Of a stretch of DNA of 64,000 bases, positions 20,515-64,000 are shown one piece after another. The notes beneath the pieces are model-generated. The model saw nothing but the letters and a program-made list of their open reading frames with translations, ran no database searches and had not been told where the DNA came from. The stretch is taken from positions 434,001 through 498,000 of the forward strand of contig OZ237749.1 of NCBI GenBank assembly GCA_965178125.1, written 5' to 3'. The first letter of the stretch is position 1, and each line of letters opens with the position of its first letter. The DNA comes from Bilabrum cf. latius. Taxonomy: Eukaryota. The position numbers and the translations under genes are program-made.

Positions 20515-21485
20515 ATGGCTACGGATAGAAAGAACAAGAAACCTAGTACTGTTGTTTCAGCGTACTTGACTGCTTACAATTTCGCGTCATTTGTGGGATG
20601 GGCAAGCGTGCTGGTGCTGACAATCAAGAGATTGCTTGACGTCAAGTATTTTGACAAGATCGGCAGCGTAGACTTGTGAGACCATTATGTAATGCTGCTC
20701 TTATCATTATATGTGTCATCTTCCTGGCTTGATCCGCGCTTAACCGCAAGACCAAACCACCTGGCACGCAGCTCCACGATCCCCCCAACGTTCCCCGAAA
20801 TCAACGGACTGTACCGCGAGATCGGGTTCGTAACCCTGTGGGTGCAAACCGGTGCTGTCTTAGAGATTGTCCACTCTATCTTGCGCCTGGTGCGCTCGCC
20901 TTTCCTGACGACGTTCCTGCAGGGTAAGCATGACTGACAAGGTTTCAGTTGCGATGCGCCCAACAGCCAACATTGCTCCCTATGCCTAATTAACTTGTCC
21001 CTGTCGCAGTGATGTCTCGCATCTACATTGTTTGGGGCATCCTCTACCTGGCTGACGATGCGCACAACTCGTTCTACCACGCAATGATGTGCATCGCCTG
21101 GTGCTGTGCTGAGCTCCCGCGCTACTTGTTCTACACGCTGAAAGAGATCACGGGAGATGCAAACAAAGTACCTTTCCCTCTCTTCTGGCTGCGCTACAGC
21201 GTCTTTGCAATCCTGTACCCGATTGGCATCTCCGGCGAGTGGATCGTGTCGTGGCTCTCGCTGGCGAAGATCGAGAAAGAGGGCAAGATCGACTGGGCCC
21301 TGGGGCCGCAGAACCCCTACAACTTCGTGTACTGGCACGCTGGGGTCATCTACTTTGTTCTCTTCGTACTGTACCCCTTCGGCTCTTACATGATGTACAC
21401 GCACATGCTCAAGACGAGGAGCAAGACCTTCCAGAAGCGCGCCGAGGCTCTCAAGGACATGCAGGAGCGCGCCAAAGCTGAATAA
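20515..21485 (+). CDS. HACD: Very-long-chain 3-hydroxyacyl-CoA dehydratase (PTPLA/PHS1 family)
   Basis: YLTAYNFASFVGW, QTGAVLEIVHSILRLVRSP, QVMSR, ELPRYLFY, WLRYSVFAILYPIGISGE, MYTHMLKTRSK. Introns 20676-20771 and 20924-21009. Ends TAA 21483-85; no in-frame TAG. Confidence 0.95.
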
Positions 21486-21806
21486 GAGGCCAAGAACCAG
21501 TGAATTGTGGCAACTCCCAGTCATTTGCCCCTGTGCGTGGCTCCCAAGCGCGCGTAGGTGTGGTTTTGTTGGTGAGCAGGACGTTGTCTTCGTGCCGGGC
21601 GGTACATCCATTGATGTGATCAAGATCCGTGATCCGTGCTCAGCACTAGACAAAAATAACTCAAACTCAAATTGGCTGCAATCACAAGTGTCGTAAAGAT
21701 GGCCCTCTTTATCCATGAATCTCTTTGCGATCCGCCGGAACTCACCAGTCCTCAGTGCAACACGATCCCGGGTGCCATTACCTCTTCATCCACTCTCCTC
21801 AGGTCA

Positions 21807-24800
21807 TCACCAATCCTCACTGTGGGACGCTGCCATTACCTCTTCGTCCACTCTCCTGAGGTCTGCACCGCTCGGCCTCCTCGCCTAATCGAAGAGGTTC
21901 TGAAACTGCCGCAGTTCAGACACCCTGACCACTTGCCGGGTCTAAAATAGCCCCTCTAGTGCGAATAGAGAGGTGGATGCGTCAACGGTGGTGCCCCCTG
22001 CCTTGTCCTATGCTTTGGATCCGACCCTGCCCATGGCATCCGCAGGCCCAGCCATCAGCTCAACACCAGTTGCGATTCCATCGGGGCCGTTCTACCCGGC
22101 ACCACCACTCGCGCTGTCATCGCTGCTCTGCGGTGCCATTGCTCCAATCGACATGGTGGCAACCTTCTGGAATGTTCGGAGGGCCCTCTTCATCGGCACG
22201 CTGCCTGCCGATATAGAGGACCACTCTCCGCCCGATGACTCCGACGACTCGCTGCCGGGCTTGGATTCGACAGGCACGCTGCTTGGGCTTGCGTTGCCGT
22301 GCGACTCCGGGCCAAAGGGCGACGCATGGCCGCTGGCTGGTGTGTACGTGGAGCCCACTGAGTCCAAGGGCGGCTGCTCCGCTGTCTCGGCGCGTGACGG
22401 GCCAGCGGTGCCGCTGTTTCCCACTCGCATGGTAACTCGGTGATCCTGCGATTCTGCGCCTTCATTCATGGAATTGCCAGCCCAGCCACTTTCTATTCTG
22501 ATTCGTTTCGGATCTCTTTCATCCTACTGGGATCCTGTCGATCGGAATGCAGCGGCTGGCACTGGTGCCTCTGATTCGCTCACCACTCTGAACGTATCCT
22601 GAGAATTGGCCTGGTGGCCAATGTGCCGAGTGCTCGAACTTGTTACTGTCTACTCTGCTCTCCTTGTTTTATTATTTCCAGAGACATGGTCTGCGCCACC
22701 ATCTTCGTCGTCTGCATCCGTCATCATTGCGGCGGCTGTATCGTCATCTGCCTCGGCTTCGCCGTCGCCACCCAGTAGATCCAGCCCAACGCTGGCACGA
22801 CACCCCGCAAACGGATCCACGTTGAACTCGAATGCGTCTCGGATGACCTCAACCACGGGATCCTGCATGGGTAGGCCTAGTTCCATTGCGAACTCAAGGG
22901 CGTCCTCATGTTCTGTCGCCTGCTCCGACAAGGACATGCCCGAGACGGAGTCGGAGCAGCTGAAACTGGTATCCATCGAATCCGACCGCTTCCTTTTACT
23001 GCCAATACCAGGCTTGGACTCGCCAACAGCACTGGACTCAGCAGCAGCCGCATGCTCGCTCGTTTGGCTCCTATCGGGGACTGGCTGCGAGTTCGTCGAA
23101 CTAGCAGAAGAACTTGAACGTATTTCCTAGCCGGCTGGAGCATCACCAAATCTTGCGAGCGGCGCTGCAGCACCCTGCTCTTCCAGAGCTTCGTCTATCA
23201 GCTTGGCCAGCTCTGCCGGCGTGCAGGAGCTGGCGGGCGGCAGCTCGAAAGACTGCATTTTCCCCACGTCTAAAGGAGTTTCGATCGGAATCACAACCAT
23301 CGTCACGGCCCGCGGCACTGACCCTAGCCATTCAAGCACGGCTGCCATGTTGCATTTAAGCCGTGAGCACAGCATGCGATCCTCAACAAATCGCCGAACT
23401 TCGTCTATGGCTTGGTTTACCTTCCCAAGCTACGACTGCAGACTTCCTATGCTGGCACTTGACGCAGGACCAGCGGAGCTTGCGATTCGCGCCCCTGCAC
23501 CTCTCGAACTGCTTGAACTGCTTGAAATTGATGCGGGCCTTGATGGCAGGCGTGGCTGGTCAAACGCGATGCTTGCCGCGTCTGCCTCCCCATCCGTCGC
23601 TTGGTCCAGCCTCTGCGGCTCGACGAGAAGCTCCTCCTCAAGCCCGTCAAAGGCTTCCACGCCGACTGAACCGGCTGATAGTGCCTCCGCTATTTCTGCC
23701 TGCAGCTTTCCCTTCCGGGTATCGAGTTGCTAATGCAACCCTACGAGCGTCATGCAAGCAGCACCCGACACTTCGTCGCAGATGGCATACCGAAGCACAT
23801 CCAGTCGGTACACGACCTGCCTCTGTCTCTGCAGGAGGGCCCCAAGGAGCTTTGATGAGCTTTCCATTGTCTCAATGGGCATATTTTCCGGCAGGTCTAT
23901 GACCTTGCATCGCTCCATAGCATCTGCAACTGGGTTGGAGCCAGCAGCTACCGCTTTGGCCGCAGCTCGATTCATTACACCCTGAGCGAATTGCATCGTC
24001 TCAGGGTGCACAATGCCCCTAAAGCATGCAACAGACGATGACGAAAGCCTGGATGCCTGCTCCGCGTCTCTATCTGCCAAGTAGCGAAGCACTCTCTTGC
24101 TGTTAGCACCCGATGGCAGATCGGGCCTCCCGCCTGGCAGGATCCTCCGCTGCAATGCACCCAGCGTGCGAGGACCCCTCCAGACCCAGTTGTATCCTCT
24201 GGAGCTTAAGAACATGGACATGTTTGCGGGCACTCTGCTCCTGCCGAACAGCACGCGGACAGTGCCCCTGCTGTCTCTCTGCACGAGCATCCTGGGTGTC
24301 GGCATGCCTCGGTGGATGGACACAGTCATGGCACGACTGGAAACGCGATCCGTCGCTTTTGACTCGTCGTCATCGAGACCCGTGTGAGAGTCTCGTGCTG
24401 GTGGTGACACTGCAAGCAGGACCTGATCCGGATGAGCGTCTACAAAACCAAGGCCGGGCCAGCCTCTGCCACCACTCTGCTGCAGTGCGGTAGCGAACGA
24501 GAAGGAGCCCCCGGTGCCGCCTCGTGCTGGTGCTGGACCTGTCGACGATGCAAGTGTGCCGCCGGTATCCTGTGGTGCAAAGCCCACATGAATGCCGGTA
24601 CCAAGCTGCACAAGCTTTTTGCTGTCTCGGTCGGCCACCGATACCGCAGAAGCAGCGCCACGAGCAGCTGGAGCTGGAGCTAGCCCTGCGGCGGCTCCTG
24701 CCACATCAAGAGAAGTCGGCCTGGAATTGCTGCTATTCACCGTGCTTCCATTCCACATGCTGCTACCGATACTGCTGCTGCTACTTGCGACCAATGCACC

Positions 24801-25646
24801 CCCCAGGCTATTGCCCCGATTGCCCTCAGGCTGCCAGTGTGCCCCATCAAGTTGCGACCACACCGTCTACGAGCCCGGTCCCGTGGTTTTCTGGTCTCTA
24901 GTAAGCATGTCGGCGACTCCGATTCGCTAGCTTAGGGTTCCACCTACGGGCAAGGATGATGGTGGCTATGCGTTCGCCTGCGTGCTTGCAGCTTCGTAGT
25001 GCTCGCGTGGAGAGGTCGGCGTGATCCACCCACCCGCCGCCGCTGCCGAAGCCGCCGAGGAGTGCACCTGACTCCATACGGGGGCCGATAATCCGTGTGA
25101 TGTGTTCGAGGCTATTTCTCTCGAAACTGAAGTCCCAGATCCTCGCAGCAGAACACCATTCTGCCATGTGGCGCCAGAAGCACTTGCTGGAGGTGCGGGA
25201 ATTGCGGACTGCCCGAGGGACGCCAAAGCTAGTGCAGCGCTATGACTTCCAGAATCTACCGGCCCAGTAGCAGCAGACTTATCAGCGGGCTTACTACTCT
25301 ATTTCCTTCGACTATTTCGCTTTGGGCCTTTGGGCTGCGGTACTTGTCGCGGTGCTTCAGGAGAATCACCAGCACGAAGAGCACGCATTGCAATCTATGC
25401 ACCCACAGAAACACTATCAGACTTCGACGATGCAGGTAGTGCAACAGATTCAATCATGTCTTTGTCAAGAGTCGTCAGATCAGAGCGGCCTTTGCCGCGG
25501 TATTTGCTCTTTCTACGATCAATTCGGTCCACGCATGGTATGCTGAGTTTTGTGCACCTCTAGCACGGTCGTTCGGATCCACACTTGCGTCTGTTGATCT
25601 AGCATGCAACACATGCTTTCTTCTTGGTGCTTGTTTTCCCTGACAT
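21807..25646 (-). CDS. Zn(II)2Cys6 transcription factor, paralog A (~1279 aa)
   Basis: MSGKTSTKKKACVAC*INRRKCGSERPC*RCTKLSIPCVD, missed by the ORF track because of TAGs at 25599 and 25560. Same-frame pieces 24966-25226, 23730-24863, 23430-23660, 23127-23375, 22650-22976, 22092-22469 are joined by TAG. Ends TGA 21807. Family motifs LPGGRPDLP, LEWLGSVPRAVT, VSELRQF. Confidence 0.88.
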
Positions 25647-26509
25647 GCACAAAGTAACTACAAATGGTAGGGCACGTCACCGTCCGGTTTTTGAGCGCCG
25701 AAGGTTCCGTCATAGAGAAATACACACGCTTGTCGACTCCATTGGTTGAACGGACAATGGCACAGATAATCATATCGAATTCATTTCTATGTTTTCATTG
25801 CAAAGATCACGAGGTGGAAGTGTGCTGTGTGAATTTGTGACCTTGAGAGAGTCGAGCAGGGTGAGACGAGCAGCAACCACTACACGCCGCCGAGCGATAT
25901 GTAGACTGAACAGACGGTGCTAGTAGCTGGCGTACTGAACGGTATGCAAGGCGGGTAGCATTGTTTCCGATGAACCGACTCGCTTGACAGTTATAGGACA
26001 GCAATATGTCGACCGGTATTTACCTGCGTTGCCACTGTATGGATTGCCATGATTACTGGCGGCGTGATTTATGCGCATCACATGAATTCGTAGTGGCGTA
26101 GCACCGCAACAAGGCGCAACGGTAGTGCAACCAAGCGTTTGTTGTGGCTCGGGCTGATAGTCTCTGGCAATAGGTTAGGTACGAGTATCCAGGCACAGCG
26201 GTCAGTTCATTAGTAGGCCTCGCACTGCTTTATGGCATGCTCAGAAGCCCTGCACGACGAACAAACGAACCCTGCCAGTGCCGTCCCGACGACGAGTTCC
26301 GGGTCTTGACTCATCAAGTTGGCCGGCGCGGGACCCTCTCATTGGCTAATCTGCCGCAACTCGTTCGTGCCACAAAGGCTCGCTGGATTCTCACCCTACA
26401 GTAAAAGCATCAACAAGCAAAACAGCACTGGAAGGTGGCAAGTGTGGCGTCCTTGTTGTGGTATCACGTATCACCCACTGTCCCGCCGTTCTATCACCCA
26501 AGCACAGCG

Positions 26510-28251
26510 ATGCAATCCGCTGGTGACGTCGAGCTCTCTTCGCTTCCAGTCGGGCCCCCGACTGAGCACTGGTTAAATCTCATCACTAAAAAGATGGATA
26601 TAGGGCCGGATGCCGTGGAGGATCTCACGAATGCAGCGCGAAGGGACAGCATGAAAGGAGACGCGCAAGGACTCGGGAAAGATGCACCCGCCAATGGAAT
26701 GCCAGCAGGCCGTACCAGGGTTTTTGCGTGCGTAAATCTTCACGAGCTCCGCAGCATTGACCCGGCCAACGAGTCCTTTGAAGTACGGGCGCGCCTGTAC
26801 CTCTGCTGGCGGCCTCCCATCCTGCACATGAGCCCCCTCGACGACCGCCCTGCACTGGAGAGCGAGAGCGATGAGGAGCTGGACGATGGAGAGGTACAGT
26901 CGGCATCTGGAAGCAACGTTTCTCCAACCAAGGCGCCTACCGACATTTTGTCTGCCAACCCTGCAGCCGGCAGCGGGCAGGGAGAATTTTGCCGCGAGGG
27001 TTGCACGAGAACAGATCCCGGCGCAAGTCGGTGGCACGGTCGAGCCGTACGGGTCGCCGATTAACCATGCTTCAAAAAGTCCTGCGCTAGCACTCGGCTG
27101 GAACCTCCGTAGGATCAGACAGCCTCTCCCCCGAAGAGATCCTGCTAGAGATGCAGCGCATTGCCTGGCGGGCCCGAGAGCAGGGTAAGCGAGTGTGCCT
27201 GTCGGACGAGGAGGTGGAGCGATTCCTCAAGATCCTTCACGTTCCAAAACTCAGCTGGATGAACGCTGCAGATTAGGAGGAAACGGACTCGCTGCCATCC
27301 CTGCGGGTCTACTGGACCCATGGTGCCCCCATGGTCATGTACAACATGGGCTACAAGCTCACCATGAAGGAGCACTTCGAGCTGGAGAATTTTCCATTCG
27401 ACACCCAGGACCTTCAGCTGCACCTGGCGTAGAACGATTCATGTACATGGGACGACTTTGACCTGGCGGTTGTATCAGTACTGTTCTCTAAATCAAGTCT
27501 CGAGATGGCTGAGTGGCACCTGCACGAGCCGATCGTGCAGCGGGCTAGCGGCAGCAGCGCGCACAAGAGCACCACGATAAGGCTGCAAGCGCGGCGAGAG
27601 CCTGGTTTCTACCTGGCCAACATTGTGGGCATCATGCTTATGCTTTCCTTGCTGGGCTTGACGCTCTTCGCCCTGCCCCGCGACCAGTTTGGCGAGCGCA
27701 TCAATGTGGTGCTAACTCTCTTGCTCACGGCTGTCGCTTTCAAGTTTGCCATCGCCGATAGCATTCGAAAGGTGGGATACAACACCTTGCTTGACGATTT
27801 CATCCTGTTAAACATGTATTTTTTGTTCTGCACTGGGATTATCTGCCTCGCTGCGTACATACTGGAGGATGCTTTCGATGGTGCGGATGGGCTTGCCCTG
27901 CCCAGCGGAGGCGTCATGCTGGCTGCTCTCATGCCTCGAGACCTCCATGCCCCCGCTGCAGCGGACCAGAGCGTAGAGGGCAAGTCAAACGAACTGCAGC
28001 TCTCGACTCGGATCTTGCGGCACGTTGGCGGATACAGCGTCAACACGGCGGGGTTGGCTGTTTCTCTCCTCGTGTTTGCGGCAATCCTGCTCACTTGGTA
28101 CTCGAGGATGAGGCGGGCAGTCTCCAACGAGAAACGCACTCGCGCGATCAAAAAAAAAGAAGGCACCAATTGGTACAACTACATCTACGGTGCCGCCGAT
28201 GTGCTGCCGGTCCCCGAGCGCCACGGCAGTGCGAATCCAAAGCAGTTGTGA
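26510..28251 (+). CDS. Pentameric ligand-gated ion channel subunit, Cys-less (GLIC/ELIC-like Pro-loop) type
   Basis: LHELRSIDPANESFEVRARLYLCW, FELENFPFDTQDLQL, EWHL, ARREPGFYLANIV, GERINVVLTLLLTAVAFKF, VGYNTLLDDF and an M4 helix. A frame change near 26890-26990 needs an intron (e.g. 26894-26973) or a 1-nt indel. In-frame TAGs in the extracellular domain. Ends TGA 28251. Confidence 0.88.
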
Positions 28252-28881
28252 CAGACACGATTCTTGACCAAGGGCGGCCGAACGGCTCCTCAGTGACTAG
28301 CAAGGTGATATGGGAAGCTGCAGTGCTGGACAATCGTGTTAGCTCGCGATGAATCGAAGCTCCTGCTAGCACTGTGGCGCTGGGCCAGCGGCAGCTGAGC
28401 AGGGGGGCGGGGGGCAAAGTCGCCGCAAGCCATGTGGCCTCACCGCAAGGGGAAGAGCAAGTATCTGAAGATAGGATCTAGGTCTGAGAGTGGGTTCGTG
28501 ACGATATCAATCTTCCTGCGTACTGCACTACCGCACGCAAGCATCCATCCATCCATCCCGCGTACCACCATGCATTCCGTCGTGCCCCATCCAAGCCCAC
28601 CGACGCCCCAGCCAGCCCCATCACTCGCGGGCATCACCCGGTTGGCAGCAGTGTCCAATGGTATAGCAGCTCTCAATGCCAACAGTGTTCTGCTTGTATA
28701 GAGACCCAGCTTCGCTGGCCGTCTGCGACTCAGCACAGGTCAGTGATGACGGGCCCGGGCCTAAAAAAGGAACCTTCATGATGCCACTTGCTCCCGAGAT
28801 GTTCCGCCTCTCCGCCTTCGGCTCACAGCGAACAGTACGAGACATCAAATTCGCTAAACCTTTGCCAGCTCGCATATTATA

Positions 28882-31800
28882 ATGCCAGGATTTCGCCGGG
28901 GCCATTCTACAGCGAAGCGGGCTTGTGTGTCATGTCAGATTGCGAAGAGAGTGTGCAGGGACAAGAACGGCGGCTCAACACGCCCCTGCGCTAGATGTGA
29001 ACGATTGGGTATACCATGCGTTGATAAGGCAGATCGTCGAAGAAGGGAGAACCGCGGAGCGGAACCCGACCAAGGCATCTCAATGGTGTCCAACCCAACC
29101 GCACACTCCGTGTTGACGACAGCTGCGATGCGAAGTCGCTCAAAAGGTGCTATTGCAGCTGCTTTTGTGGCACGCCAATCACAACTTGGCATCAAGCGGC
29201 AACGGGATGGTAGTAGATCTACTCAGGTTTTCGGCCCCCCCCTTCCGCCTACAAGTCTTGGAAAGCCGCCTGAGCGGGCATTGCTGCGGATGCCTGGAAG
29301 CGGCGGTCTGGAAGCCCAAGGTGTTGCAGTTGATGCGGCACTTGTACAGCAGCGGGGCCTCGATGGTGCTTGTATGGCGGGGAGCGCTGCTGCTCCTGCG
29401 CGTGACAGCGCTGCATCCCAATTCCCAACCCATGGTCAGCCAAGAAGCGAATCATAGGCAGCACTAGGAAGCTACATGCTTCCATAGCCCGGAACAGGGC
29501 CGTATAGAAGCGACTGGACAGCAGACCGCTCGCCCAAGCAGACTCAGGTGATGGAGGCAAGCCCAAGCCCAGCCACCGCGGCGTCGGCAGGGCCGCAAAA
29601 ACATCAAAATAGTCTGGCAAAGTTTGCCAAACATGACCTCAGTGCTGGAACTGGTATATTTGCCGGCGCAAGCCCAGAAGCTCGATGTGGATGTGCTGTA
29701 AGTGTCAGCACTTCGCCCAAGCCAAGCCCGACCGGCAAGACGCAGCCGCTGGCTCACACCTCCACTTCTAGTATCGGGTCTGCGTCAATCAGCGGATCCA
29801 GTCGTGCAGACAAGTATCATTTTGCTAGCTAGGTATTGTCGTGTCCGCCTTATGGCGTGAGCGTGCAGGACAAGGATGTTGGGTCGTGGAGTGCGACGAC
29901 TGCGGCTGCCACATTTCCTCCCGACAGCCCTGCTGACCGTGCCAGTGGTGGCCCCTCACGCTCAACTGGGACTAGCCAATCAGAAGCAGCCGAATATTCA
30001 TTCGAATCCGAGCACGATTAGACCCACCCCTCGGGCAGCACTGTGCCTGTGGTGGTGGAAAGCGACTCATTCGGAGCCGCGAAGATCACGTACGCAGCAA
30101 GGCACTTGGAGCCAAGCATCAAGAGGTGGTTCGAACCACACGGCAGCGACTGGATCGTTGTCCCGCCTGCGGTGAAAAGAGCCTTATCTAGTAGAATCCT
30201 ACCCGATGGGAAGCCCGATCTCCCCTTGTCAGCTACAACTATGGCAGGCTGGCAACAGCTGAGATTCAGCGATGCCGTTGCCAGCGAGAGGATATCTAGG
30301 ATGAGCCGGCCTTGCTTTCGCATGACTTTCGATATATCCACACTCGGAGTCATGACAGGGCACATAAATGCCGGTGCAGCCAAACTGATCGGATTCAATG
30401 AGGACTTGCAGGTGATGGAGGGCGTGGGCATGCTTGCCCTTCCCACCAGCACGCCGGTTCAACTGCGTGGCAGCTCGGTGCTGATGCTCAGGGCACTACT
30501 ACTCAAGCAGCCAGCGGTCGAGTACGACATTCATATGCCCACTTTCTTCTACGATAGCGATACAGGCAGGAAAGAGTGCCGGGTAGCGGCTGGCTTGGTT
30601 CCTTTGATCCGAGCAGGCACAGAGGCTCAGGAGCTCCTCATTGCTGGAGCTGCGGCTGTGGCTGCAACCGGGGATAGTGCCGCAAGCGGTGCATCGCGGT
30701 CAGATGGTTCAAAGGTGGCGGCTGGCCTCTCTCCATCCCAGCAGTCTACTGCCATCGCTCTGATTCACCACTTCATCGCACAGAGGATGGTCACGAAGCA
30801 GCGCAAGCAGAGGGCTCGCAGCAGTTTTGAATGGGTTGGGAGCGTCCCGAGGTCGATCACGACTGAGATTCTCGACTCCGGCAGAGAGGTGCCCAGTGGC
30901 GAGGCCCTGGAGCAGCTGCCCACTAGGATAGGCTTTGCCTCCGTGCATGACCTCATTGCTGGGCTCAGGCAGCTGTTCGGCAAGGATGCAGTGCGGCAGC
31001 TCGCTTTGCACGCCACTCCCATCCCCGAGGCGCGAGAGGCGCTGCTGGCAGAGCACGCGTCGCCTGCTGCTGGAGTGTCGCTTGCCCTGCAGTACCAAAC
31101 TATCCTGGGGTCGATGCGGGGCATTGTGCGGGGCAATTCGCTGGACATGCTGCATGCCGGGCTTGCAGAGCAGCTGAAGCACCTGCTTGTCCAGCCGGGT
31201 GTCGATCCTCAGCCATACGGTGGGGGGAGCAAGCCAATGGTGCTATCGCCGGCATCACTTGCACTACTCTCGATGAGTGTCGACGCTGGCACTGGCCAGC
31301 CGGCGCTTCAGGACGCGGATGGCTCCATCGCTCGATCGGTAGCTTCCCTGGCGGATTCATTGCGATCGTGCGAACTCGACAGGCAAGGAGGGCTTGCAGG
31401 TGCGGGCAACGCCAGCTTGGTCTCCTCTCTGGATTTGCCGGATGACCGATCTGATGATGGGAGCGTGAGTCTGCTTGAGTCCTCAGCCATGGCAGGAGCT
31501 GATAGTCAATTCTAGCCGTCACAGTCGCCAAAAAGGTCCTCGTCATCGGGCCCGCCAGCAGGTCGGAGGGGAGGCGGAACTGGAAGTAGCTATGGTTGCA
31601 CTGGTTTTGCTGCTACTGTTCCCGATGCAACAGTCGGCGGCAAAGCTTCTGTAGCAGGTAGCGACGCAGAGCCTCCGTCCAAAAAAATGCGACATGACCC
31701 TTCGTTGCCGAACGATTCGGATGGTGCTGCAGCTGCAGTTGGTCCTATAGATTGGAGTCACGCAGCCCGTGGTCGTGGACCTCCCCCAGCTGCTCACGAT

Positions 31801-32307
31801 TGTGCCTCGAGTATCGGCGTGGATTCAATGTCATTCCACAGTGGTCTGACGACGAACGTTGATGCTAATTTGCAGGGACACGACAGTCCACGTAGCCAGC
31901 CACACGGAGGCAATACGCAAGATTCCCAATGTGCTGATGTTGCAGACACTAGGGCATAGCGAGAGGGTTGTGCTATGACCGAGAACGTAGGACTAGCACC
32001 AGGTACCATGGGGGCAGGTGAGTTGGAAGATGGTGCTGTGTAGGGACACCAGTCTTTCACTAGGTCAATGGGCGCGTAGAGCAGTTCGGTCGCATCATAG
32101 CAAGGATTACGACGAGCGGTTGCTGTGCGGCAGCCTGTGGATCGGTATGCGATGTTCCAGGAGATGCACGCCATGTGGTCCAGGCGATCGGCGCTGCGGG
32201 TGAGTGAGCTGCTGCAGTGGACCGTGGCGGCCAGGGACGTGCTTACCAGGCCGGAAAGCGCGCAGGCCACGAGGCTGGTGGCCGAGGTCTTGGAGGGGAT
32301 TGCGTGA
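28882..32307 (+). CDS. Zn(II)2Cys6 transcription factor, paralog B (~1141 aa)
   Basis: RACVSCQIAKRVC...RPCARCERLGIPCVD. Same-frame pieces 28882-29457, 29548-29832, 29836-30021, 30043-31515, 31687-31959, 32125-32307 are joined by TAG. Ends TGA. Motifs LPDGKPDLP, HINAGAAKLIGF, FEWVGSVPRSIT. Confidence 0.88.
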
Positions 32308-42920: not shown

Positions 42921-43108
42921 TACAGGACTTTTTGGCTTCCTGGACGTCGAAAAATGTGTATCGCCGCAATCAGAAAAATCCAGAACCATCGGCAGTTTAA
43001 AAATGAAGATGAAGATACAACGCATAAAAAGCGTTCCTCGGATTGTCGCTTGTGTGAATTACGTGCTGATACTCTATCATCTCTCTTCGCTTTGCAGTAA
43101 GTTTACCT

Positions 43109-51288: not shown

Positions 51289-51481
51289 TCTTTAAGGACA
51301 GCCTGAAGCTGTAGCAGCCCGAGAACTTTCCGTGCAAACCTCTGGTGCAATCATTGCGACCAACACAGCGGCAGCATACAGAGGGCCAGACTGTCCTGGT
51401 CAAGACACCTATTAAATTGAAAAGGTGTACCAGCGTTAGTCACTATAAGCGCGGCGTCGAGAAACGCTCTGGTACCGCAGG

Positions 51482-52900: not shown

Positions 52901-53148
52901 GAGACGCTTCGTGAAGGTAGTATTACATGCGATGATACAGTGCATGCACACGAACGAAATACACCTCTACCGCATGCTTGGGATCCTTTTTAGGATTCTT
53001 TTAGGATTCTGTCACTAAGCGTCCATTTAAAGCACCAAGGTGACCCCTGGACCAGGCCCTGCCCTGGACCCCCAACGCACCGCCTGGCGGTGACAGGCGG
53101 GGGATCAACCAGCGCAACAAGAGCACCGGTGGCGCACGCCCACCGCCC

Positions 53149-55253
53149 TCAGTCTCCCTTGATCTGTCCGTAGATGAAGTCCACGAACCAAAATGTCGCC
53201 AAGAACCCCACCGCTCCAAACATGACAGAAAAACCGGCGGACATGACGCCCATGTACCCGAAGTACACGAGGCTCTGCAGCATGCCACTCATCCCGCTAT
53301 GCTGATAGTAGTAAACAAAGGAATACGCGAAGATGAACGCGCCCACCATGCTGCCGCTTAGGTAGGCCCTCCACTGCCACGTGTAGTCTTGCCTTGACAA
53401 CTGCAGGTACGCCAGAGCGATGCAGATGAACGCAACCACCAGGGTGAGCAGCCCGAACGCCAGTAGCAAGATGCCAAACATAGTGTACACCATGTGGCCC
53501 CAGATGGCGATGAAAATGTAGTGCAGCTGCACCGAGATCGCACTGAACGGCAGCAGCCCAGCCCCCAGCAGGTGCACCGCAGTCCCTTGGTACCACGGCG
53601 TCTCAGGCAGTGTCCTCATCGTGGTGCTAACTCGGCAAGGAGGGGAATAGTCCTGCCCGGAACCTCTCCCGCACCACGCCCCAAAGAGGCCTCCTGGCAA
53701 CGCGACTACGGCAAACAGACCCAGAAATGCCGCGATGGTGGCAGCTGGCAGCGCCACAGAGGAGCCTTTCTATATGGCCACAGAGTTGATCACAGAGAAA
53801 ACGGCGAGTAGAATCCCAGGAAATAAGCACATGCTGATGATGGCCGACTGAGTGCGACTGCCACCGTCCCCTGCTGCAGCATCTCCCTTGCCTGCCCCTC
53901 GCTGGGCCGAGTCGCGGGCCGCAGCAGCCCCTGCTGAGGCGCCCACAGTCGAGGACCCGAATCGGTTGTACCCTGTGCCCCGAGCCGTTAGCTGGGCGAA
54001 GAGCCGCGAGGCCACGAAGCCACCGATAGGCGCGGTGATGCAGTAGAGGACCATGGCGGCCACCACGATGGCACCTCGGCGGGTCACGTGGAACGTGTTT
54101 GTCACGGCGAGGACTAGCAGCAGCGTGGCGGTGGTGAAGAGGTGCATGCCCGCACCCACCAGACCGGCGAGGGTCGCGTGGCTGCCGGGAGTGCGGAAAA
54201 CGTTCGTGCGGATGAGCTTCCAGCCGTTTTCATCGGCGGTGTCCCCCTCTTCGTCGCGCAAGGCAGCGGCGAAATCGCTGCGCACCACGCGCGCCAGGAC
54301 AACGCCCAGAAAGGAGACGAGCAGGACGACGAGGACCACTGAGTTTGAGATGCTGTACCAGTGCACCTGGGTGCTGCCCGGCAAGAAGGAGCTGTCGTGG
54401 TAGCGGCCCATCCGATCGTGCCACTTCTCCGTCGTCTGGATCCACTCCACGCTGTAGCTGAACTCGATGGACAGAGGCGATTGCCTGCCGTGGGGGTAGC
54501 TTGCCGTGGGCTCGTCGGACCTCGAGAGCTCCACCCTCTTCTCCGGCGGGGCGGTAATGTTGATCGCAATGATTTTGTCGTCATTGTACGCGATGGAGAA
54601 ATGCAGGTGGGTATAGACGTAGTCCTTGCTCTGACCCGTGGCATCGCCGATGAGCCCAGTTTCGTCCTCGTGCTCGCCCACGAAGGACCAGGCCGGCAGG
54701 CCGTCGAGCACGAACTCGAACTGCGATAAGAGCCGGAGAAGGCAGTTACGTTGCAAGTGCCAATGAACCATCGGTAACTTGTACAGTTGTGTGCTTGTCA
54801 ATTCGCTCACAAAGTAGTCTTCTTGAACGGCAAGGCGCAGCCGATCAACCTCGCCATCCGATAGCTCTTTCTCGCACAGCAGCCGCCACTCGTAATTCAC
54901 AATATATCGAATGTCATAAGCTGTGGAGTATCGCCTATCCCCGGCTAGGTACTCTCCAATACTGTGCGCAACAACAACAAAAAGTGGTGCTCGGACACTT
55001 GGAGTACCATGCAACATGAGTGGATTCGATTCCAGCGACGCAGAGCTTTATCTTACCTGTGCTATTTCCTATCATAATTCTTGGGGGGGCAAAACGGCAT
55101 AGAATAGTAGCTGTACGTTTCCGAGGGGTTGTTGAACGGTGAAGTCTTGGCCGCCTGCAAGTCAACGCTGTCGTGAAACTGGTATGTCTTTGGCCTCGAG
55201 GCGGTTGCCATGGCTGCCAAAAGTGATGTTCCCACACACAGACAAGACCACAT
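53149..55253 (-). CDS. TM9SF: Transmembrane 9 superfamily (nonaspanin/EMP70), TM9SF1-like
   Basis: PFNNPSETYSYYSMPFC, SIGEYLAGDR, VHWYSISNS, GWKLIRTNVFR, GLLPFSAI, WQWRAYL and C-terminal IKGD. Introns 54962-55056 and 54721-54810. In-frame TAGs at 55062 and 53770. Ends TGA 53149. Confidence 0.95.
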
Positions 55254-55400
55254 ATTGCAAAGTACTTGTGTCAGCCAGCAGCCTCCAACGTGGTTTCGCC
55301 AAACGGATGAACCTCGACGGAACCTTCGGCAACTGTGAAAGCGACGAAATATCGTAACTACGTTGGCTCCGAGGCTGCAGCTTACGTTTGAACAGGAGCA

Positions 55401-56021
55401 ATGTTTACTAAAGATTAGGGTCCACTATGGAGAAGGATGATGGTGGTGCTAGAAAGAGCAGGAAAGTTCAATAAGCTCCCTCCGGTACCCGAGTTGAAAG
55501 CAATGGTGCTCGAATATTAGGTACTGCAGCTCAAGCTGGCACAAGTGGAAGTTGTTGCAAATCATGGGAATGGACTTGTCAAAGCGATAGCCACATGCGA
55601 CGGAAAGCTCAGCCGTGTGGAGTTAAGTGGTCGAGCGAAGGAACTGCCTCGTGAAGGCCTGCAAGAGGTCGTGACGGCGGCGGTCAACGACTCCATTGAG
55701 AAGGCTAGACTACGACAGCGAAAGGCAGACGAAGTTCTGATGGACAAGCACGTTCCAGCCTTGATTGAGCTTGCCAAAACTGTCTTTATGGCAGACCCCG
55801 AGCTGAGGGCAGCATCGTTGCGCCTCGAAAACCTCGAGAGCGAGGCCGAGGCCGAGAGAGACATGGAGCGGCTTCGGAAAGAAAAGGGAGATTTGGATCA
55901 GAAGGCGCAGCAGGCATCATCGGGTGGGCAGTACGGCGGCGCGGAAGGGACAGTGGTAGAGGCGGAGGAGATAGAGGTAGAGGCAGGGGCAACCGAGGGG
56001 CAGCAGGGGGGCAGGCAGTGA
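55401..56021 (+). CDS. YbaB/EbfC-family (bacterial nucleoid-associated-like) protein
   Basis: ATG 55401, two in-frame TAGs, then LEY*VLQLKLAQVEVVANHGNGLVKAIATCDGKLSRVEL...LQEVVTAAVNDSIEKA, matching the YbaB pattern. Ends TGA 56021. Confidence 0.8.
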
Positions 56022-56253
56022 ATGGTGTGGAACGAAGCGCAATTCATTGCAAGAGTGTAGCAGCAGCAAGGCGCATCTTTTCGTTGGCTGCCAGCTCCTA
56101 CAATACAATGCATTCAACGACGATCCGAGATGCTATATGGGGTGCCGGTCCATGCAGGCAGATAGATACCAGGCAGCGCGAACGCAGGGCACTGCTGGCA
56201 GTGACACTGCTAGATCCAGTACGTCTATGCAGCAGGATAGAAATCAACCCAAG

Positions 56254-57260
56254 TCAAAGCCTCATGGGCGGCTCATCCATTTCGAGAGCGGGGTCCTCTT
56301 CATCCGGGACGGTCTGGGCCACGTACTTGACCCGCTCCGTCTAGAGGAAGCCCCTCAGCTGCCCCCTGACGTGGAGCCTCTCCTCGCTTCCGTCCACCAA
56401 GAGCAGTCGGGAGGGCTTTGACGGCTGCGCGAGCGTGTCGAGAGTCAGCAGGGAGAAATCGAGAACCCCCGCGCTGGTCTTCTGGGCCTCCAGAGACACG
56501 AGCCCGCTGCCCTGCTCGCCTTCCACGCTGAAGAGCATGTGCACCCTGGGGTGCAGCCACCCGAAGGAGCCCTTGGAATCGAAGCCAAGCTGCCCGTTGC
56601 GTAGGGCGTAGGCTCGCAGGCTCCCCGAAGTGACCTTGTTGCCCAGCAGGCCCTTCACGTCGGGGTGGTTCCGCAGCTTGCCGAGCGCGGCGCCGTGAAC
56701 CTGCTCGGGGCGGATGCTCCACTGCCGCTGAGCAGCGTACGCGGCGGCTGCTACCGTTCCAATAGATGCAGCTCCCGTGCCAAATCCGGCGTAGAACACA
56801 TCAGTGAACGAAATTGACATGAAGGACGTCGTAATGTACATGAATACTCTTGAACTAGCGTATGCGAGGGCAAGCCCGGCCGATCCCACGATCAGCGTGT
56901 TTGCATTCTTCTTAACCCAGCCAAGACTAGAATCTGAATCGTCTTGGCCAGATTCTTCCGGTGCTTTTAAGATACTGCTGCGAGGAATGACAGAATTTAG
57001 GACACCACCATCGCTTCATCAGCGCAATTAAGTTACACTGCTCCCCTCACAACGGCTAGCACTTTGATTTATCAATTCTCTCACTTTGATGAGCCCGTCT
57101 CAGATTTGGGACTGGCTCGGCTGTTTGATGGGTCCTTCGTTCCAAAGCTACGCTAAGCAAACCCGCTTTCCACCGCATTTAGCGTCCTAATTTCTCGACT
57201 AAATACATGTCTCGAGACACTCAATATTTGAGAACTGCGTCTGCTAACCTACCGCAACAT
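56254..57260 (-). CDS. Mitochondrial inner-membrane Tim21/Coa1-like protein
   Basis: Presequence-like MLR*VSRRSSQ...FA*RSFGT, intron 56978-57084, TM segments, PEQVHGAALGKLRNHPDVKGLLG and MLFSVEGEQGSGLV. In-frame TAG 56341; ends TGA 56254. Confidence 0.65.
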
Positions 57261-57434
57261 TTTTTTGCCAGGTCTTCCGGAAATTTGGTGTTTTGGTTCA
57301 CTTTATCCCGAGCCAAGTAAAGATCCGGAATTGAAATGGTGTTTTTTTGCGACCATCAGTGCGACTCGAATTGAGCAGAAACCGAGTGCTGGAGTATAGT
57401 TTCCGCGCTCCTTGGAGCTGCAAACTGGCGTCAA

Positions 57435-60400
57435 ATGATGCGAACAGTTCTAATATCTTGTATAGTCCTCATAAACGGTGGCCTAGCGCAGTGTTCTTGG
57501 AATCAAGAGCCCTTGCGGCTGGCACAGGTTCGGCAATGCTTCGATGACGGTGGTGCTTACAATGAAACCAGAGCTCAGCAAGAAGTCAATATTGTCCGGC
57601 ATGCAATGGATCATTACTCATATTTGGATCTGGTACGAAATAGCGGGCCGCCATGGGACTATAGGCTCGACACGACAGCAGTCTTGCAGAACCTATCGGA
57701 AACAGCATCTGTCCCAGGAGCCTATGCCCAAGATTGGTCGTTCTACGTGAGTGAAGCGCACGAAGTGCCCAGTAACGCAGTATATACCCACTCATGCGTA
57801 TTTTTGGGACAACTTTAGCTGTTGTGCGGCGTGGGGGGAGTCCGTTCAGCCCGGCATGGCGCCAATTCCGCTATCACACTTTCCCTTTCACAACCTTGCC
57901 ATCCGCATGTTCGATGGCCCTGTCCGCCCCATTTTTATTGAATGCGCAGGAAGCACTATCTACGCCGCTACGAGCCATGGGTGACTCTCATGTTGCGGTG
58001 CTAAAGCCCTCCTGCTACGCAATCATTGGCGCCCAGCCGGTATCTCCTGCACCATTTTACCTAGACAGGCAGAACCCAAACCAAGTTCGATATTTCTTAA
58101 CAGAATTTAAACTTGGCTAGCTAGATCTCGCCAGGACGTACGATCCCGGGGCCGTGGCGTTCCTACCAGCGCGTGAGGTCAGCCGCAGCGTCCTCCAGCT
58201 GTACGAGGTGCTGGCAGTCGATGGACTAGCACCGGCGGAGTACATTGCAAGTATCATTAGTGATCCAGCAATCACGTCGCCGTACAGCCACGATCCTTCC
58301 GTGAGCTTCACCGCGGCTCTGCGCAACCTGCAGGCGAGCCTGCGGCTGCTGCAGCTAGACTCTTTGCCGGCAAGCAGATAGGTTACCTACACCTTGCGGC
58401 GATGCGAGGCCCCCATGTCTGGAACAGACGTAGACTCTGCGGATCTGACGCAGCTGGCCTGCGCGTAGAACCTTGCTTCGAACGAGGTCACGCTGCGGGC
58501 CGATTGGCTCTTCTTCCACACGGCTGCTCGCCGGCCCACCACTGCTGCACAGTTTGCTCGCCTGTGCGAGCGGCAGTCGGCCCGGCCCGAAGTAAGGACA
58601 GGAAGCAGCTGCAGGGCCTCGGCAGTGCCGCGCTCGTCGGACGACGGCCGTCGCGAGCCCGGCTGGCTGGCCAGGGCGAGCATGTTTACCAGCGAGGGAG
58701 CGAGGGGTGCCCTGCTGCGCAAGAGCATACTGGAAGACGCGCGCTCGTCACACCAGGGGAGGTTTCTCGGGGAGCACCCTCGACAAGGGCAATAGGAGGA
58801 AGAGGAAGGAGGTGTTGAAATGGTGCCAAAGGTGAGCGGGTACAGGAGCGCACTCAAGCACATGCTCGGGAGCATCGAGCGGAGGCATGCCCGCGAGGAG
58901 CCGAGCACCGGAGGTCGACGGGCCCGAGCAGGGGCCCAGGGAACAAAGGAGGAAGGCTCAATCTTCGCGTTGAATGCCCTGCGCGCCCTTGACGACTCGG
59001 AGCCGGTCTGGGCGACGGGCACGGGCACGGGTGCTGTGGCCGGCGGTGTGCCCTCTGGGGCGGCGCTGGAGCAGCTGCGCGAGGCTGACTTTTCGCGCGC
59101 TCTGCAGGAGAGCGGCACTGGTGGCAGCGGGGCCACATCGCGGTCGGACCTTGCTGACGTGTCCACCGTGCGACGTCTTTAGGCCGCGGACTCCTCCGAC
59201 GAGCAGTCCATCTTCGAGGTCGTGCGCACCGTGTTCAACACTCATCACACCCAGGAGCTGCGGGAGGTGGAGGAGAGGCGCCAGGCCCTCATTGCTGATC
59301 CGAACGTCACCGCAGTGCCCACGAAGGAGCTGCTGCTGACGGCCCGCAACTACACCTACACGAGCATTTTGCTCAAGATACCCTCCTTTTCCCCCAGCGT
59401 GTTCACGTCGTGCTTCGCTGGGGTCGACGTCACGTGCGGCACCGACGTGGCGCTCAGCGAGCTGGACACGTGCTTGAGCAACGCAGCTGCGACCTTCCTG
59501 CGGCGGGGCGCCGCGGGCGCTTACCAGTTCGCACGGGCGAGGAATGCTTCCCAGATCATCGTGGACGTGACCGGCAACGATGGGGGGGTCGTGCTCCTCG
59601 GCAGGATGACCGCAGCTGCGCTCAGTGCGCAGGTGACGAACGTTCCGTCGCTCGCCGAGTACGCGAACGAGATGCGCCCGGGGTCTGTCGTGTCGGCCAT
59701 GGCGAGGTTCGTGGATCAGCAGAACGGTGTTGGCTCGGCTCGACGCCTCGCCTCTATGCTGGGGCTTGAGGAGGTGCCCGGTGCTGGGCGACAGCAGCAG
59801 CAGCGGCAGTAGGGGCACGCGAGGTCACACATGGACAAGCGGAAGGACAGGAACGATATCGATGCTATTCACAGCAGGCGGCTGCAGCAGACCGTGACAG
59901 CCAGGCACTTCCCCTCCTTCCCTCTTTGGGGCCTCCTCGACCCCGTCGATACCGCCGTGAGTGCTACTAGTCCGGATGCTTCCATCGCCGTGGACGACGT
60001 GGACGGCGGGCACGGTTGGTTCTATGCTTCTGACGAGACGCGGCGCTGGGGCGGTGGCAGGCATTCGGTGACCAAGGCCGTGAAACTCTTCGACCTCACC
60101 GCCGAGATGGCCGAGCTGCCTGCCGATGTGTTCCCCAGGAGTCCTGGGGAGCTGATTGCTCCCATTCCGATCATCATTGCCTCGGACGGCATGTGCGGGT
60201 CAACGTGCGCGTAGTTCCTTCGGTCCATCGTGGACACGGGATTGGGCACGGTGCTTGGCCTCGTGGCAAGCGCTGGCACTGCCTATCCGGTCAGCGTGAC
60301 CGACAGCTTCGCCGGCGGCTTTATCGTTCAGGACTCCGACAGCCAGCTGGTGCTACCGTACATGGAGGCAAGGGAGCTGGGAATGGCCGACCCGGCCACG

Positions 60401-62581
60401 TTCGCAGACGGAACCCCCTTCGAGCCCCCTGCCTTCATGCCTAGCTCGGCCAATGTTGCCTACAACTTTGGCTCGGCGAGGTCGAAGAGGAGACCGACCT
60501 ACCCCCTATAGTTTGATCCGCAGAGGGCAGACGCCTACGCCGTGGACCAGAGCCTCAACATTGCCCAGCCTCCGAGCGACCTGCAGTTCGCCGCGTATCT
60601 GGCCTCTGAGGCAGGGCGCAGGCTCCCGTACACGTCCAACCCCTTAGTTGCCGCTGCCACGCTGGTTGAGGCGGGCACTAGGAACGAGCTGCTGGCGCAG
60701 GCGGTGGATACCCAGGCCTTGGATTCCGTCGTGGAGGACGAGGTGCAGAGGAGGGCCAATGCCACGCTTCTCGTGCTCCTCGCTGCTGTGGGCGACACTG
60801 TCAGCCGGCGGGACTACAACATCCTGCTGTACGTGTGCATCGCGCTGGCGGTCGTTGCGGTGATCGCGCTCCTCCTCGCCCTGCTGCTGATCTGCTGCCT
60901 TGGCGGCGGAGAAGAGGAGAAGGACGTGCAGGTCTCGCAGAGCACGACGCTCACGAGGAAAGGCTCCAAGCGAACCGTGACTGTGCGCCGGCGCACCATT
61001 CGAAACCTGAAGAGCGAGAGCAGCCTCCAGCTCGACCCCAACTCAGGGGAAGCGGGCAGCAGCGCGGAGCACAGGAAGAACTCTTTGCACACAAGGTCCT
61101 TCCGTGTCGTCACCGCCAAGGGCAAGAACAAGCGATCGGGCGCTGGGTCCAGCGAGGAGTCCAGTGCCAAGGGCAAGAACAGGCTGCGAACCAAGGGCAA
61201 GGGCACCAGCTCGTACGGCAGTGAAGCTAGTGATGTGGGTGAGTTTGATGAGGAGATAGATCTTGGTGACAATGCCATGTCCAAGAACCGGCTCAAGGGC
61301 AGAGATAAGGGGAAGGGGGAGCGGGGCGCGGCGCTTGATCTGGAGCTTGAGCCCGAGAAGGAGGGGAACAGCAGCGGGGACGGGCTGGCTTCGGTTGGAG
61401 TGTCCCCGTCGGAGCGAGGGATGCAGAGGGAGATGTCGATCGTGAGAGAGGAGGAGGAAGAGGAGGACGAGACAGAGGACGAGGGATCGATGAATCGATA
61501 GGCCAGCTCAGGCATGGTGGACGGGCAGTTTTCCTTCCAGAACGCACTTGAGAAACAGGAGGAGAGGAGGAGCAGGCGAGACAGCAAGGAGAGCGGCAGC
61601 GCGGACAGCAGGGACTATGAAGGCAGAGACAAGGTATCGCATGACGTGGAGAGGCACATATTCAGGCACAGATACGAGGACGACAGGGCGCAAGGGTCCG
61701 CGCACAGTCGCGCTCAAACGTACGGAGGCTCCCATGTTGTGCATGCGTGGGGCACAAACGGTGGTCCTACATCGGGAGGCAGCCAGTACCGATCCATGCG
61801 CCATGCCGTCGGCTCCTTTAGGTACGGGTATGGCAGGCCACGGGCAAATTCGCCTCCCAAGGCGATCGCGGCGACCACTAAGCCTAGGTGGGAGTCGCAG
61901 GACGGCTCTGACGGCGTCACAGATGACAGATCGGTGGCGACCTCGGTGGCTGCAGGCGAAGCCTCTGCGGCAACTAGTGCAGCACCTGAGACGCACGGCT
62001 AGACAAGTGCGTCTCACGGCTACAGCGCCTCTGCGGGTAGCAGCACCAGCCTTCGCGCCAACAAACCCACGGCTCATGCCCATGCCCGGTCCCAGCGAGG
62101 CATGGTCCGCGGCCGCAGCAGCAAGCACGGGTTCCACGATCCGTTGGCCGACCCGGACCACGAAAGGAGCCCCGCCCCCCTCAAGCAGCGGCCCAGCCAG
62201 CTGGACGTGCGGGGCAGGCAGGCGCCTCTGCGGGTCGCGGTCTCTTTCCAGGAGCAGTCTCAGATGGCAGAGAGGCTCGAGCGAGAGAACGAGCTGCAGC
62301 GGCAGGCAATGGGAGAGGCTCTCGTTTTTTCGCAGGGAGGTGACCAAAAAGCCGCGGAGGCTGGCGTGTATGCTGGCCAAAGCAGGCCGGCCACGACCAC
62401 TGCCGCTGGCGGGGCCGAATCGCCGGCTTCGAATGGTAGCAGAGGCCCCGGGCCGCAGAGCCCGAGCACGCCGCGGGTGCGGGTCACCATCAGCGAGCTG
62501 ATGACGGCGGGCAAGGAAGACGGAGGTGGGGGCGGAGATTAGGACTCCGGCAAGGGGGGTGGCGCTGCTGCGAGCACCTGA
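57435..62581 (+). CDS. Large type I membrane protein with eukaryotic S41 (tail-specific protease-like) peptidase ectodomain and disordered cytoplasmic tail
   Basis: Signal peptide, intron 57747-57949, MGDSH, IIVDVTGNDGG, IIASDGMCGSTCA*F, SFAGG and a TM helix ILLYVCIALAVVAVIALLLALLLICCL. Same-frame pieces are joined by TAGs ending at 58120, 58381, 59182, 59812, 60214, 60511, 61501, 62002, 62542. Ends TGA 62581. Confidence 0.75.
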
Positions 62582-62755
62582 CTAGACGATGGTGTGGGTG
62601 CAGGGGTTGGTGGGTGTGGAAGTGGTCCGGCATATTGTAAAGTACACATTCTCGTTACACTCTATTTCAAAAGAATCAGTCGAATCCTCCCGGCGTTGGT
62701 ATCAGTACCAGTCGCACAGGACCGGATCAACAATGCATTGAATGTCCATTCAAAC

Positions 62756-63989
62756 TTACAAGCCCAGCCACGACTTCCATGAGAGCGCCTCCCTGTGGGC
62801 TGCTTCGTCGTCGGCGGTCTGGTTGGGCATCTTGAGCGCCTTTCGGATCCACTTCTTGGCCTCGTCTTGGTGCCCCAGCTGGTAGTGGCACATGCCCAGA
62901 TGCAGCACGTTCTGCTTCCAGAAGCCCGGCCTGAGGTCTTCCGCAGCCTTGAAGTGCTTCAGGGCCTCTTCGAACGTGCTGGTCGGGGGCTTCCGGAACA
63001 CCATCGCGGCGATGTTTCGTGTGACAGAGCTCATGTTGGAGACGTCGTAGCACCACCGCCCGAGCAGGTGCCTCGCGTTCGGGTCCTTTGGGTTGAGCTC
63101 GACCGCTTTGAGCCACTGGTCGCGCACACGGTACGATTTGGCGATGTAGTCGCTCGTGGTGGAGAACTCCCCCGTCGAGTTCATCGCAATGCCGTAAAAT
63201 CGCCTGGCAGACGCGCTGTTTTCGTTCAACATGACCGATGTGGCCGCGGTGCGCTCAGCGAGCTCCAGCAGCCGCTGGCGCTCGTCTGCCATCATCCTGT
63301 GGTCCTCCTGCGTTAGCTGAATGGCGGCGCGCGCCAGTCGCCACCCGAGCTCTGCAACAAAGAATCGCTCAGGGGCAGACATTGCATCGGGGTCCAGCGG
63401 CTCGTCGTCCGATGACTCAGCGACGGCATCGTACGCTCGCTTGCACGTCTCATACACAATCCGCCGGGTGTACTTGCTCGCTTCTCTTTCCTTCTCGTCC
63501 AGCTGCAAACAAGTAATTCAAACAACTTCAGGTAAACTTAAGTACAGCGAAAGTACAAGGCGTTGCGATGAAGCGCCACACCACACCGGCGAATCGTTTT
63601 TTCTGTTCCTGAAACGAAGGCAGTCTTCGACACAGGAAGAAGCAACGGCTGCAGATGGTGCTTTATTGCACATATGACACTCAACATTATAGCGCATCGC
63701 CTCAGACAACTCTCACTTCTTCAAGGGCATCTTCTGTTCGCTTGCCACGCAAGAAAGATTGGATCTTCTAGCCTATCGTCGGTCGGTCGGGCGTCGTGGA
63801 GGGCGGTCTCATGTCAGCAGACCAAGATGTTGAGCTTGATTTGGATGCTTCGTCCGTACAACGGATGTTAGCTGTTGTGCCAGCAGCCGCAATAGAAATC
63901 GCACCTGCGGCTGCCAATCCGACTGCGCTTACCTTTGCTGCACGGCCCAGCGCAGCCCTTCCGGCTGACGCTCTCCTGGTAAGCAACAT
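62756..63989 (-). CDS. RMDN: Regulator of microtubule dynamics (RMDN/FAM82) family TPR protein
   Basis: ELGWRLARA, KAVELNPKDPNARHLLGRWCY, PPTSTFEEALKHFKAAE, EAKKWIRKAL. N-terminal exon from ATG 63989 with TAG 63768, probable intron 63503-63716. Ends TAA 62756. Confidence 0.9.
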
Positions 63990-64000
63990 TGAAGTTGATC

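Follow-up and report, generated by a model that had tools for sequence, protein, structure and literature searches.

How far the stop codons UAA and UAG can part ways, one becoming a sense codon while the other goes on terminating translation, is the question raised by a 64,000-nucleotide stretch of contig OZ237749.1 from Bilabrum cf. latius (positions 434,001 to 498,000), hereafter called the window. A change of meaning almost always affects UAA and UAG jointly, and this coupling is broken in only a handful of nuclear genomes. In the genes of the window, UAG occurs in frame and is kept in the mRNA, UAA and UGA are absent in frame, and UAA stands where C-termini are conserved, shortly before the 3' ends of the mRNAs. 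We consider it highly probable that the window is nuclear DNA of a eukaryote rich in guanine and cytosine (GC) and equipped with spliceosomal introns, in which UAG is a sense codon, most likely for glutamine, and UAA and UGA are the only terminators, which is the pattern of NCBI table 15.

GC content lies between 55 and 61% across the whole window and is about 58% overall. Reading with the three standard stops, we found 19 open reading frames (ORFs) of at least 300 amino acids, with a summed length of 8,300 amino acids. Taking TAG as sense gave 33 such ORFs and 21,842 amino acids, the longest ORF having 2,363, and taking TAA as sense with TAG kept as a stop gave 22 ORFs and 9,550 amino acids. 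The long frames that contain TAG are genuine eukaryotic genes, with matches to Pfam families, namely a CLU+SUFU fusion, SRAP, HACD/PTPLA, EMP70/TM9SF, RMD1-3 and, in six cases, Zn(2)Cys(6). Twenty genes have their stop inside the window; 16 end in TGA and four in TAA, and TAG is needed as a terminator by none of them.

The codon count covered 15,626 codons, from 16 coding stretches assigned with confidence. These contain 102 in-frame TAGs, no TAA and no TGA. In the +1 frame the same DNA holds 112 TAG, 42 TAA and 266 TGA, and in the +2 frame 140, 51 and 319, respectively. TAG is therefore about as frequent in frame as in the background, and the exclusion of TAA is as strict as that of TGA. These results bear on several statements of an initial annotation made from the DNA letters. 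The many internal TAGs and missing internal TAAs that it described were recovered, as was the absence of genes ending at TAG, and the four TAAs that it had placed at the ends of the HACD, paralog F, GH-like and RMDN frames were all found where it put them. Its gene tally needed a correction: the four TAA genes stand, while its 15 TGA genes become 16 and the total becomes 20.

As the coding stretches are bounded by TAA or TGA, the stop-codon count alone is partly circular; RNA contig ends and homology, taken up below, remove this circularity. The 102 TAGs are spread over 14 of the 16 stretches and lie, among other places, in the conserved CLU, SUFU, SRAP and EMP70 domains. In 15 coding sequences they are distributed along gene bodies like CAG and CAA and show no depletion near 3' ends, the last 50 codons holding 6 of 101 TAGs. 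Their density is uneven, with none in HACD and RMDN, one in a membrane protein of 1,193 codons, one in 523 codons of EMP70 and 16 in 1,279 codons of the Zn(2)Cys(6) paralog ZnA, and the more conserved genes seem to have fewer. TAA is also the nearest upstream in-frame stop for 9 of 21 frames (the 20 genes, one counted as two exons), although it is the rarest of the three triplets, and it seems to be concentrated in untranslated and intergenic DNA.

Ten public sequencing runs contain part of the window, and four of them (X2, X5, X6, X7) were placed on positions 44000-63999. The DNA run X2 gave one colinear piece of 17.4 kb with the introns kept. X5, X6 and X7, which come from two studies, are not recorded as RNA and were taken as RNA from their spliced contigs: these skip five GT..AG introns (54720>54811, 54961>55057, 56977>57085, 57746>57950 and 63502>63717) of 90-214 nucleotides and stop near gene ends. 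In paralog F, the GH-like gene, EMP70 and a gene of 1,600 residues, their long pieces run across the TAGs and TAAs without a letter that differs from the DNA. Because the contigs carry the TAGs unchanged, RNA editing is excluded, and since in-frame TAGs and terminal TAAs are both seen in them, both are present in the mRNA. The contigs extend 59, 121 and 136-153 nucleotides past TAA, and 33 and 167-177 nucleotides past TGA, the latter at EMP70; the untranslated regions that follow the two stops are thus alike in length. At two convergent gene pairs, GH-like/EMP70 (52959-52982) and the 1,600-residue gene/RMDN (62614-62635), the contig ends lie about 13-23 nucleotides apart, so that very little intergenic space is left.

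Two of the four TAA stops, those of paralog F and of the GH-like gene, are decisive. The six Zn(2)Cys(6) paralogs share a C-terminal motif, and the C-termini of all six fall 0-10 residues past it; paralog F, which ends in TAA, stops within one residue of the TGA-terminated ends of paralogs D and E. If F were read through its TAA, the protein would gain 83 codons before the next in-frame TGA. The RNA contigs of F end at 47040 (X5), 47023 (X6) and 47159 (X7), at most 153 nucleotides past the TAA, and contain no further in-frame stop.

The GH-like gene encodes a predicted secreted protein with no Pfam match at E 0.01. It is part of a conserved, uncharacterised family with 19 or more members in the database, in which Glu, Trp and Asp columns are invariant and some members have a C-terminal Cys-rich domain. 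We aligned the C-termini of 11 of the 19 database relatives. The one that is 87% identical has the same last residue, the second closest stops two residues before it, three others end within a few residues, and six carry unrelated tails or Cys-rich domains. A metagenome relative (L001, 65% identity) terminates with TGA, two residues earlier. Translated searches (tblastn) with all 11 of these homologs found no significant similarity past position 52897. Reading through the TAA would add 135 codons and run into the EMP70 coding sequence on the other strand, whereas the RNA contig of the GH-like gene ends at 52959, 59 nucleotides past the TAA and 13-23 nucleotides away from where the convergent EMP70 contig has its 3' end.

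The other two TAA stops are less informative. In HACD, the PTPLA profile (8e-34) is matched to its last position (162/162) 15 residues before the TAA, and in the alignment a relative of 94% identity extends two residues further and one of 80% identity stops three residues short; judged by this alignment, these ends fit the TAA somewhat better than a protein six codons longer. In RMDN, the RMD1-3 profile (1e-27) is matched up to position 224 of 235, eleven residues before the TAA. The RMDN mRNA, which is transcribed from the minus strand, shows its poly(A) tail as a loose end of 23 Ts at 62635 in one RNA contig, 121 nucleotides past the TAA. The RMDN TAA is also overlapped by a perfect GTAAGT donor consensus (62753-62762, minus strand), which is unspliced in all three RNA runs. 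A splice donor at this TAA or at that of F (GTAAAA) was considered and rejected, as the RNA contigs pass unspliced through both. The initial annotation had described the TAA of F as level with the TGA stops of its paralogs, which holds to within one residue for D and E, and had called the HACD case ambiguous, as indeed the TGA after five sense codons makes it. It had treated HACD as the sole ambiguous case, which was mistaken, RMDN being ambiguous too (TAA GTT TGA). Its wider contention, that this is not the ciliate-type code with both UAA and UAG (UAR) as glutamine and that UAG is sense with UAA and UGA as stops, agrees with the codon counts, the C-terminal homology and the RNA contigs alike.

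What TAG encodes was examined mainly in the CLU+SUFU gene. In this gene a CLU (clustered mitochondria) domain at the N-terminus is fused to a SUFU domain at the C-terminus, and the SUFU part is matched, at the same C-terminal position, by database proteins of 1,977-2,337 amino acids (P0028, P0084, P0109, P0116); the fusion may be conserved in some lineage. A HMMER search with the SUFU region found 490 relatives, of which 49 were aligned. Six of the seven SUFU TAGs lie in variable or gapped columns, and the one in a conserved column is matched by Q in 23 and by H in 22 of the 49 homologs. Among the top hits were also short protein fragments of 85-97% identity, which have Q, A, Q, K and Q at five TAG positions. 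They are orthologs of close relatives cut up by a standard-code gene caller: all five fragment ends fall exactly before a TAG (three) or a CAG (two) of the window, and none before a CAA. These relatives therefore have the code in common with the window, and TAG and CAG are exchanged for one another among them. Elsewhere in the window, four TAGs are common to paralogs D and E, and the sites at which the two differ (CTC, AGA, TAC, GAG) are uninformative on the meaning of TAG; the SRAP TAG lies in a variable position of the PDB alignment, and EMP70 gave no PDB match at E 1e-10. Glutamine is the best reading of TAG and, on these comparisons, which cover a small sample, a probable one.

That UAG is a sense codon for some other amino acid (Leu, Ser, Glu, Lys or His), with UAA and UGA as stops all the same, appears unlikely. 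Leu in the rhizarian exLh and Ser in Scotinosphaera are precedents for it among published UAG-only codes, most SUFU TAG columns are variable, the conserved one is almost evenly split between Q and H, and two of the five TAG positions have A or K in relatives. Q is nevertheless the most frequent counterpart in both comparisons, the two fragment ends that lie away from a TAG both sit at CAG, and the conserved SUFU column carries no Leu or Ser signal. We regard as close to negligible the idea that the code is standard and the TAGs are not translated as written, being pseudogene lesions, assembly errors or codons edited to CAG in the mRNA. Nothing speaks for it except the general prior that code changes are rare, and it would have to accommodate 102 TAGs in conserved and other stretches that lack in-frame TAA and TGA, unchanged TAGs in the RNA contigs of three runs (two studies), and relatives with stops at the same positions. 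The RNA contigs refute it unless X5-X7 are in fact DNA, against which their intron-skipping joints argue.

The remaining alternatives concern UAA. It is extremely improbable that UAA and UAG both encode glutamine (table 6, as in ciliates, hexamitins, some ulvophytes and Amoeboaphelidium), with UGA as the sole stop and TAA merely rare at high GC. TAA is indeed the rarest of the three triplets over both strands of the window (415, against 1,024 TAG and 1,723 TGA), TGA ends most of the genes, and two of the four TAA stops have a TGA within 2-6 codons. However, if TAA were used relative to TAG as CAA is relative to CAG (176:429), about 42 in-frame TAAs would be expected, and even at the ratio of the most skewed A/G pair (TTA:TTG, 27:185) about 15, compared with the zero observed. 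The extensions of F and the GH-like protein, moreover, are without homology and lie beyond the RNA contig ends, that of the GH-like gene would enter its neighbour's coding sequence, and the end of F is level with those of its TGA-terminated paralogs. Somewhat less remote, though still very unlikely, is a dual, position-dependent UAA that acts as a stop near mRNA 3' ends and as a rare sense codon inside genes. Codes of this kind are known from Condylostoma, karyorelicts and Blastocrithidia (PMC4967479, PMC12153298). The sample of only about 20 genes leaves room for such a code, and the TAA stops lie close to RNA 3' ends wherever RNA contigs were placed. Where such dual codes are known, the ambiguous codon is frequent within genes. 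Here, internal TAA numbers 0 against 102 internal TAGs in the 15,626 codons, and the pattern of an ambiguous stop was not seen among the approximately 20 genes, TAA and TGA never occurring in frame and no TAG serving as a stop.

Some points weigh against the reading of UAG as glutamine with UAA and UGA as stops. Only two of the four TAA stops are unambiguous, a TGA following 6 codons further on in HACD and 2 codons further on in RMDN. The contig ends are not the same as mapped 3' ends, and a poly(A) trace was seen at RMDN only. The codon-usage score of the 50 codons after the TAA (-0.03 for F, -0.06 for GH-like; 0.06 and 0.04 for the 50 before) is too weak, so that coding and non-coding sequence after these two TAAs are not separated by it. 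CAG and TAG are one transition apart, so the comparison with close relatives reflects mutation in part; glutamine draws on one conserved column together with these comparisons, and the A and K found there do not fit it. The sample, finally, is one 64-kb window with about 20 genes, in which a rare or context-dependent sense use of UAA, below about 1 in 5,000 codons, may go unseen.

If UAG is read as glutamine and UAA as stop, the mechanism, by analogy with published cases, would involve a tRNA-Gln with the anticodon CUA, one base from the CUG isoacceptor; this tRNA would pair with UAG but, its wobble position giving a C:A mismatch, not with UAA. The release factor eRF1 would have lost its affinity for UAG, or would be outcompeted there, and would still recognise UAA and UGA. 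An eRF1 that reads UAA and UGA but not UAG is a reasonable hypothesis, which we infer from the code and do not present as a finding; instead of an altered eRF1, it is possible that a normal one is outcompeted at UAG by abundant tRNA(CUA). Neither a tRNA gene nor eRF1 lies within the window.

Nuclear codes with UAG as sense and UAA as stop have been published for at least five lineages (PMC5304391, PMC11687900). Iotanema spirale (Fornicata) reads UAG as Gln and stops at UAA and UGA, with UAA predominant (Panek et al. 2017, PMC5304391). The mechanism proposed for it combines a tRNA-Gln(CUA) with a changed eRF1; its eRF1 is reported to have a T32G change in the GTS motif, and that of the rhizarian exLh an alanine at the L69 position (PMC5304391). 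The code of the window has the same codon table as that of Iotanema, in which UAG is the sole reassigned stop, read as Gln, and UAA is kept as a terminator. It differs in that TGA predominates (16 of 20 genes) where Iotanema prefers UAA, and the window has a GC content of about 58%, Zn(2)Cys(6) factors of fungal type and CLU, a gene of mitochondrial dynamics. We see nothing in the window that suggests a fornicate affinity, although the lineage was not directly tested. A look-up of the RMDN exon in the Atlas gave broad RMD1-3 clusters only.

Among ciliates, Protocruzia tuzeti, Hartmannula sinica and Trochilia petrani have been reported to read only UAG as Gln and to stop at UAA and UGA, and in these ciliates UAA stands at 93.5-100% of aligned C-termini (PMC11687900). 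As in these species, UAG is spread along gene bodies in the way ordinary Gln codons are; unlike in them, most genes of the window end in TGA. The long introns (90-214 nucleotides) and the high GC content also look unlike those of ciliates. UAG encodes Leu in other phyllopharyngean genomes and in the rhizarian exLh, and Ser in Scotinosphaera (PMC5304391, PMC11687900). The exLh and Scotinosphaera codes resemble ours in that UAA is decoupled from UAG and still a stop, but assign UAG to Leu or Ser where the evidence here favours Gln.

Amoeboaphelidium protococcarum is reported to read both UAA and UAG as Gln (Karpov 2013, cited by PMC5304391, PMC6299283 and PMC11687900), and Amoeboaphelidium genomes are described as having about 40% GC (PMC10608142). 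It is likewise a non-ciliate with stop codons turned to Gln, and the fungal-type Zn(2)Cys(6) genes of the window would fit a fungus-related lineage; however, TAA is reported as Gln there and is a terminator here, and GC content is about 40% there compared with 55-61% here, which excludes Amoeboaphelidium as the source of the window. The same codon table is also known from phages as code 15, by which crAss-like phages and others of the gut read TAG as Gln (PMC9523058). The system there is that of a prokaryotic virus, with suppressor tRNAs and RF2, whereas the window is eukaryotic, having spliceosomal introns, poly(A) and eukaryote-only families. Compared with the published UAG-only cases as a whole, the window is set apart by TGA as the dominant stop, high GC, introns of 90-214 nucleotides and fungal-type Zn-cluster factors. 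We found no description in the literature of a UAG-only code in a GC-rich non-ciliate of this kind, within a coverage that is incomplete and leaves prior publication possible.

The window is thus probably a further case of a known UAG-only code variant and not a new principle. That it represents an independent, undescribed origin of UAG as Gln with UAA as stop, in a GC-rich, intron-bearing lineage that is neither ciliate nor fornicate and shared by relatives at 85-97% protein identity, is a tentative view, which we hold with slightly less than even confidence. If it is true, the lineage would be a tractable system for how eRF1 separates UAG from UAA, as DNA and RNA data of several strains exist. 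Each independent case tests whether a tRNA whose anticodon is CUA explains the asymmetry between UAG and UAA, and which eRF1 changes tell G from A at the third stop-codon position. The finding is of interest to specialists and is important for annotating the genome. Annotation with the standard code truncates genes at TAG, and the relatives' database fragments break at TAG positions; annotation with table 6 would overrun the real TAA stops of F and the GH-like gene by the 83 and 135 codons mentioned, in the latter case into the neighbour's coding sequence. The genome should be annotated with TAG as Q and with TAA and TGA as stops. The main features are given in Table 1.

Table 1. Positions of the principal genes in the window, with their stops and in-frame TAGs (CDS, coding sequence).
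Feature	Position	Strand	Details
CLU+SUFU fusion gene	8166-15173	+	2,335 codons; 17 in-frame TAG; TGA stop; main source for TAG = Gln
HACD/PTPLA, last exon	21009-21485	+	TAA 21483-21485; in-frame TGA 21501-21503 after five sense codons
Zn(2)Cys(6) paralog	21807-25676	-	TGA stop
Zn(2)Cys(6) paralog	28858-32307	+	TGA stop
Zn(2)Cys(6) paralog	32552-37549	-	TGA stop
Zn(2)Cys(6) paralog	39123-43058	-	TGA stop
Zn(2)Cys(6) paralog	43109-46747	-	TGA stop
Zn(2)Cys(6) paralog F	47176-51291	-	CDS 47179-51288; TAA stop 47176-47178
GH-like secreted protein gene	51482-52897 (CDS)	+	TAA stop 52898-52900
EMP70/TM9SF gene	53149-55251	-	Introns 54721-54810 and 54962-55056; TGA 53149-53151; RNA-supported TGA control
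Gene of 1,600 residues, main exon	57950-62581	+	11 in-frame TAG, all present in RNA contig; TGA stop
RMD1-3 (RMDN) gene		-	TAA 62756-62758; sequence TAA GTT TGA

The six Zn(2)Cys(6) paralogs lie inside 30 kb (21807-51291) and have the C-terminal motif in common. D, E and F are neighbours on the minus strand, oriented head to tail, with 79% identity between D and E. The cluster has arisen by recent local expansion of a family of fungal-type transcription factors. The trimmed coding sequences of the six contain 7-16 in-frame TAGs each. All six matched the Zn_clus family of Pfam, five of them at E 2e-07 to 4e-05 and above the gathering score of 21 bits; the match of ZnB is weak (E 0.0099, 16.4 bits) and below that score.

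Two further genes appear to be split by introns. In the gene of a parallel beta-helix-like secreted protein (17379-17798 and 18316-19941, minus strand), the second exon apparently lies downstream of the first in-frame TGA, so that this TGA would be intronic. The Cys-loop-channel-like protein (26405-28251, plus strand) has a weak Pfam match (E 0.00034, under the gathering score), and its extracellular part is encoded in a separate upstream frame (26405-27064). An intron must therefore join the two parts, and the TAA that closes the upstream frame would be intronic.

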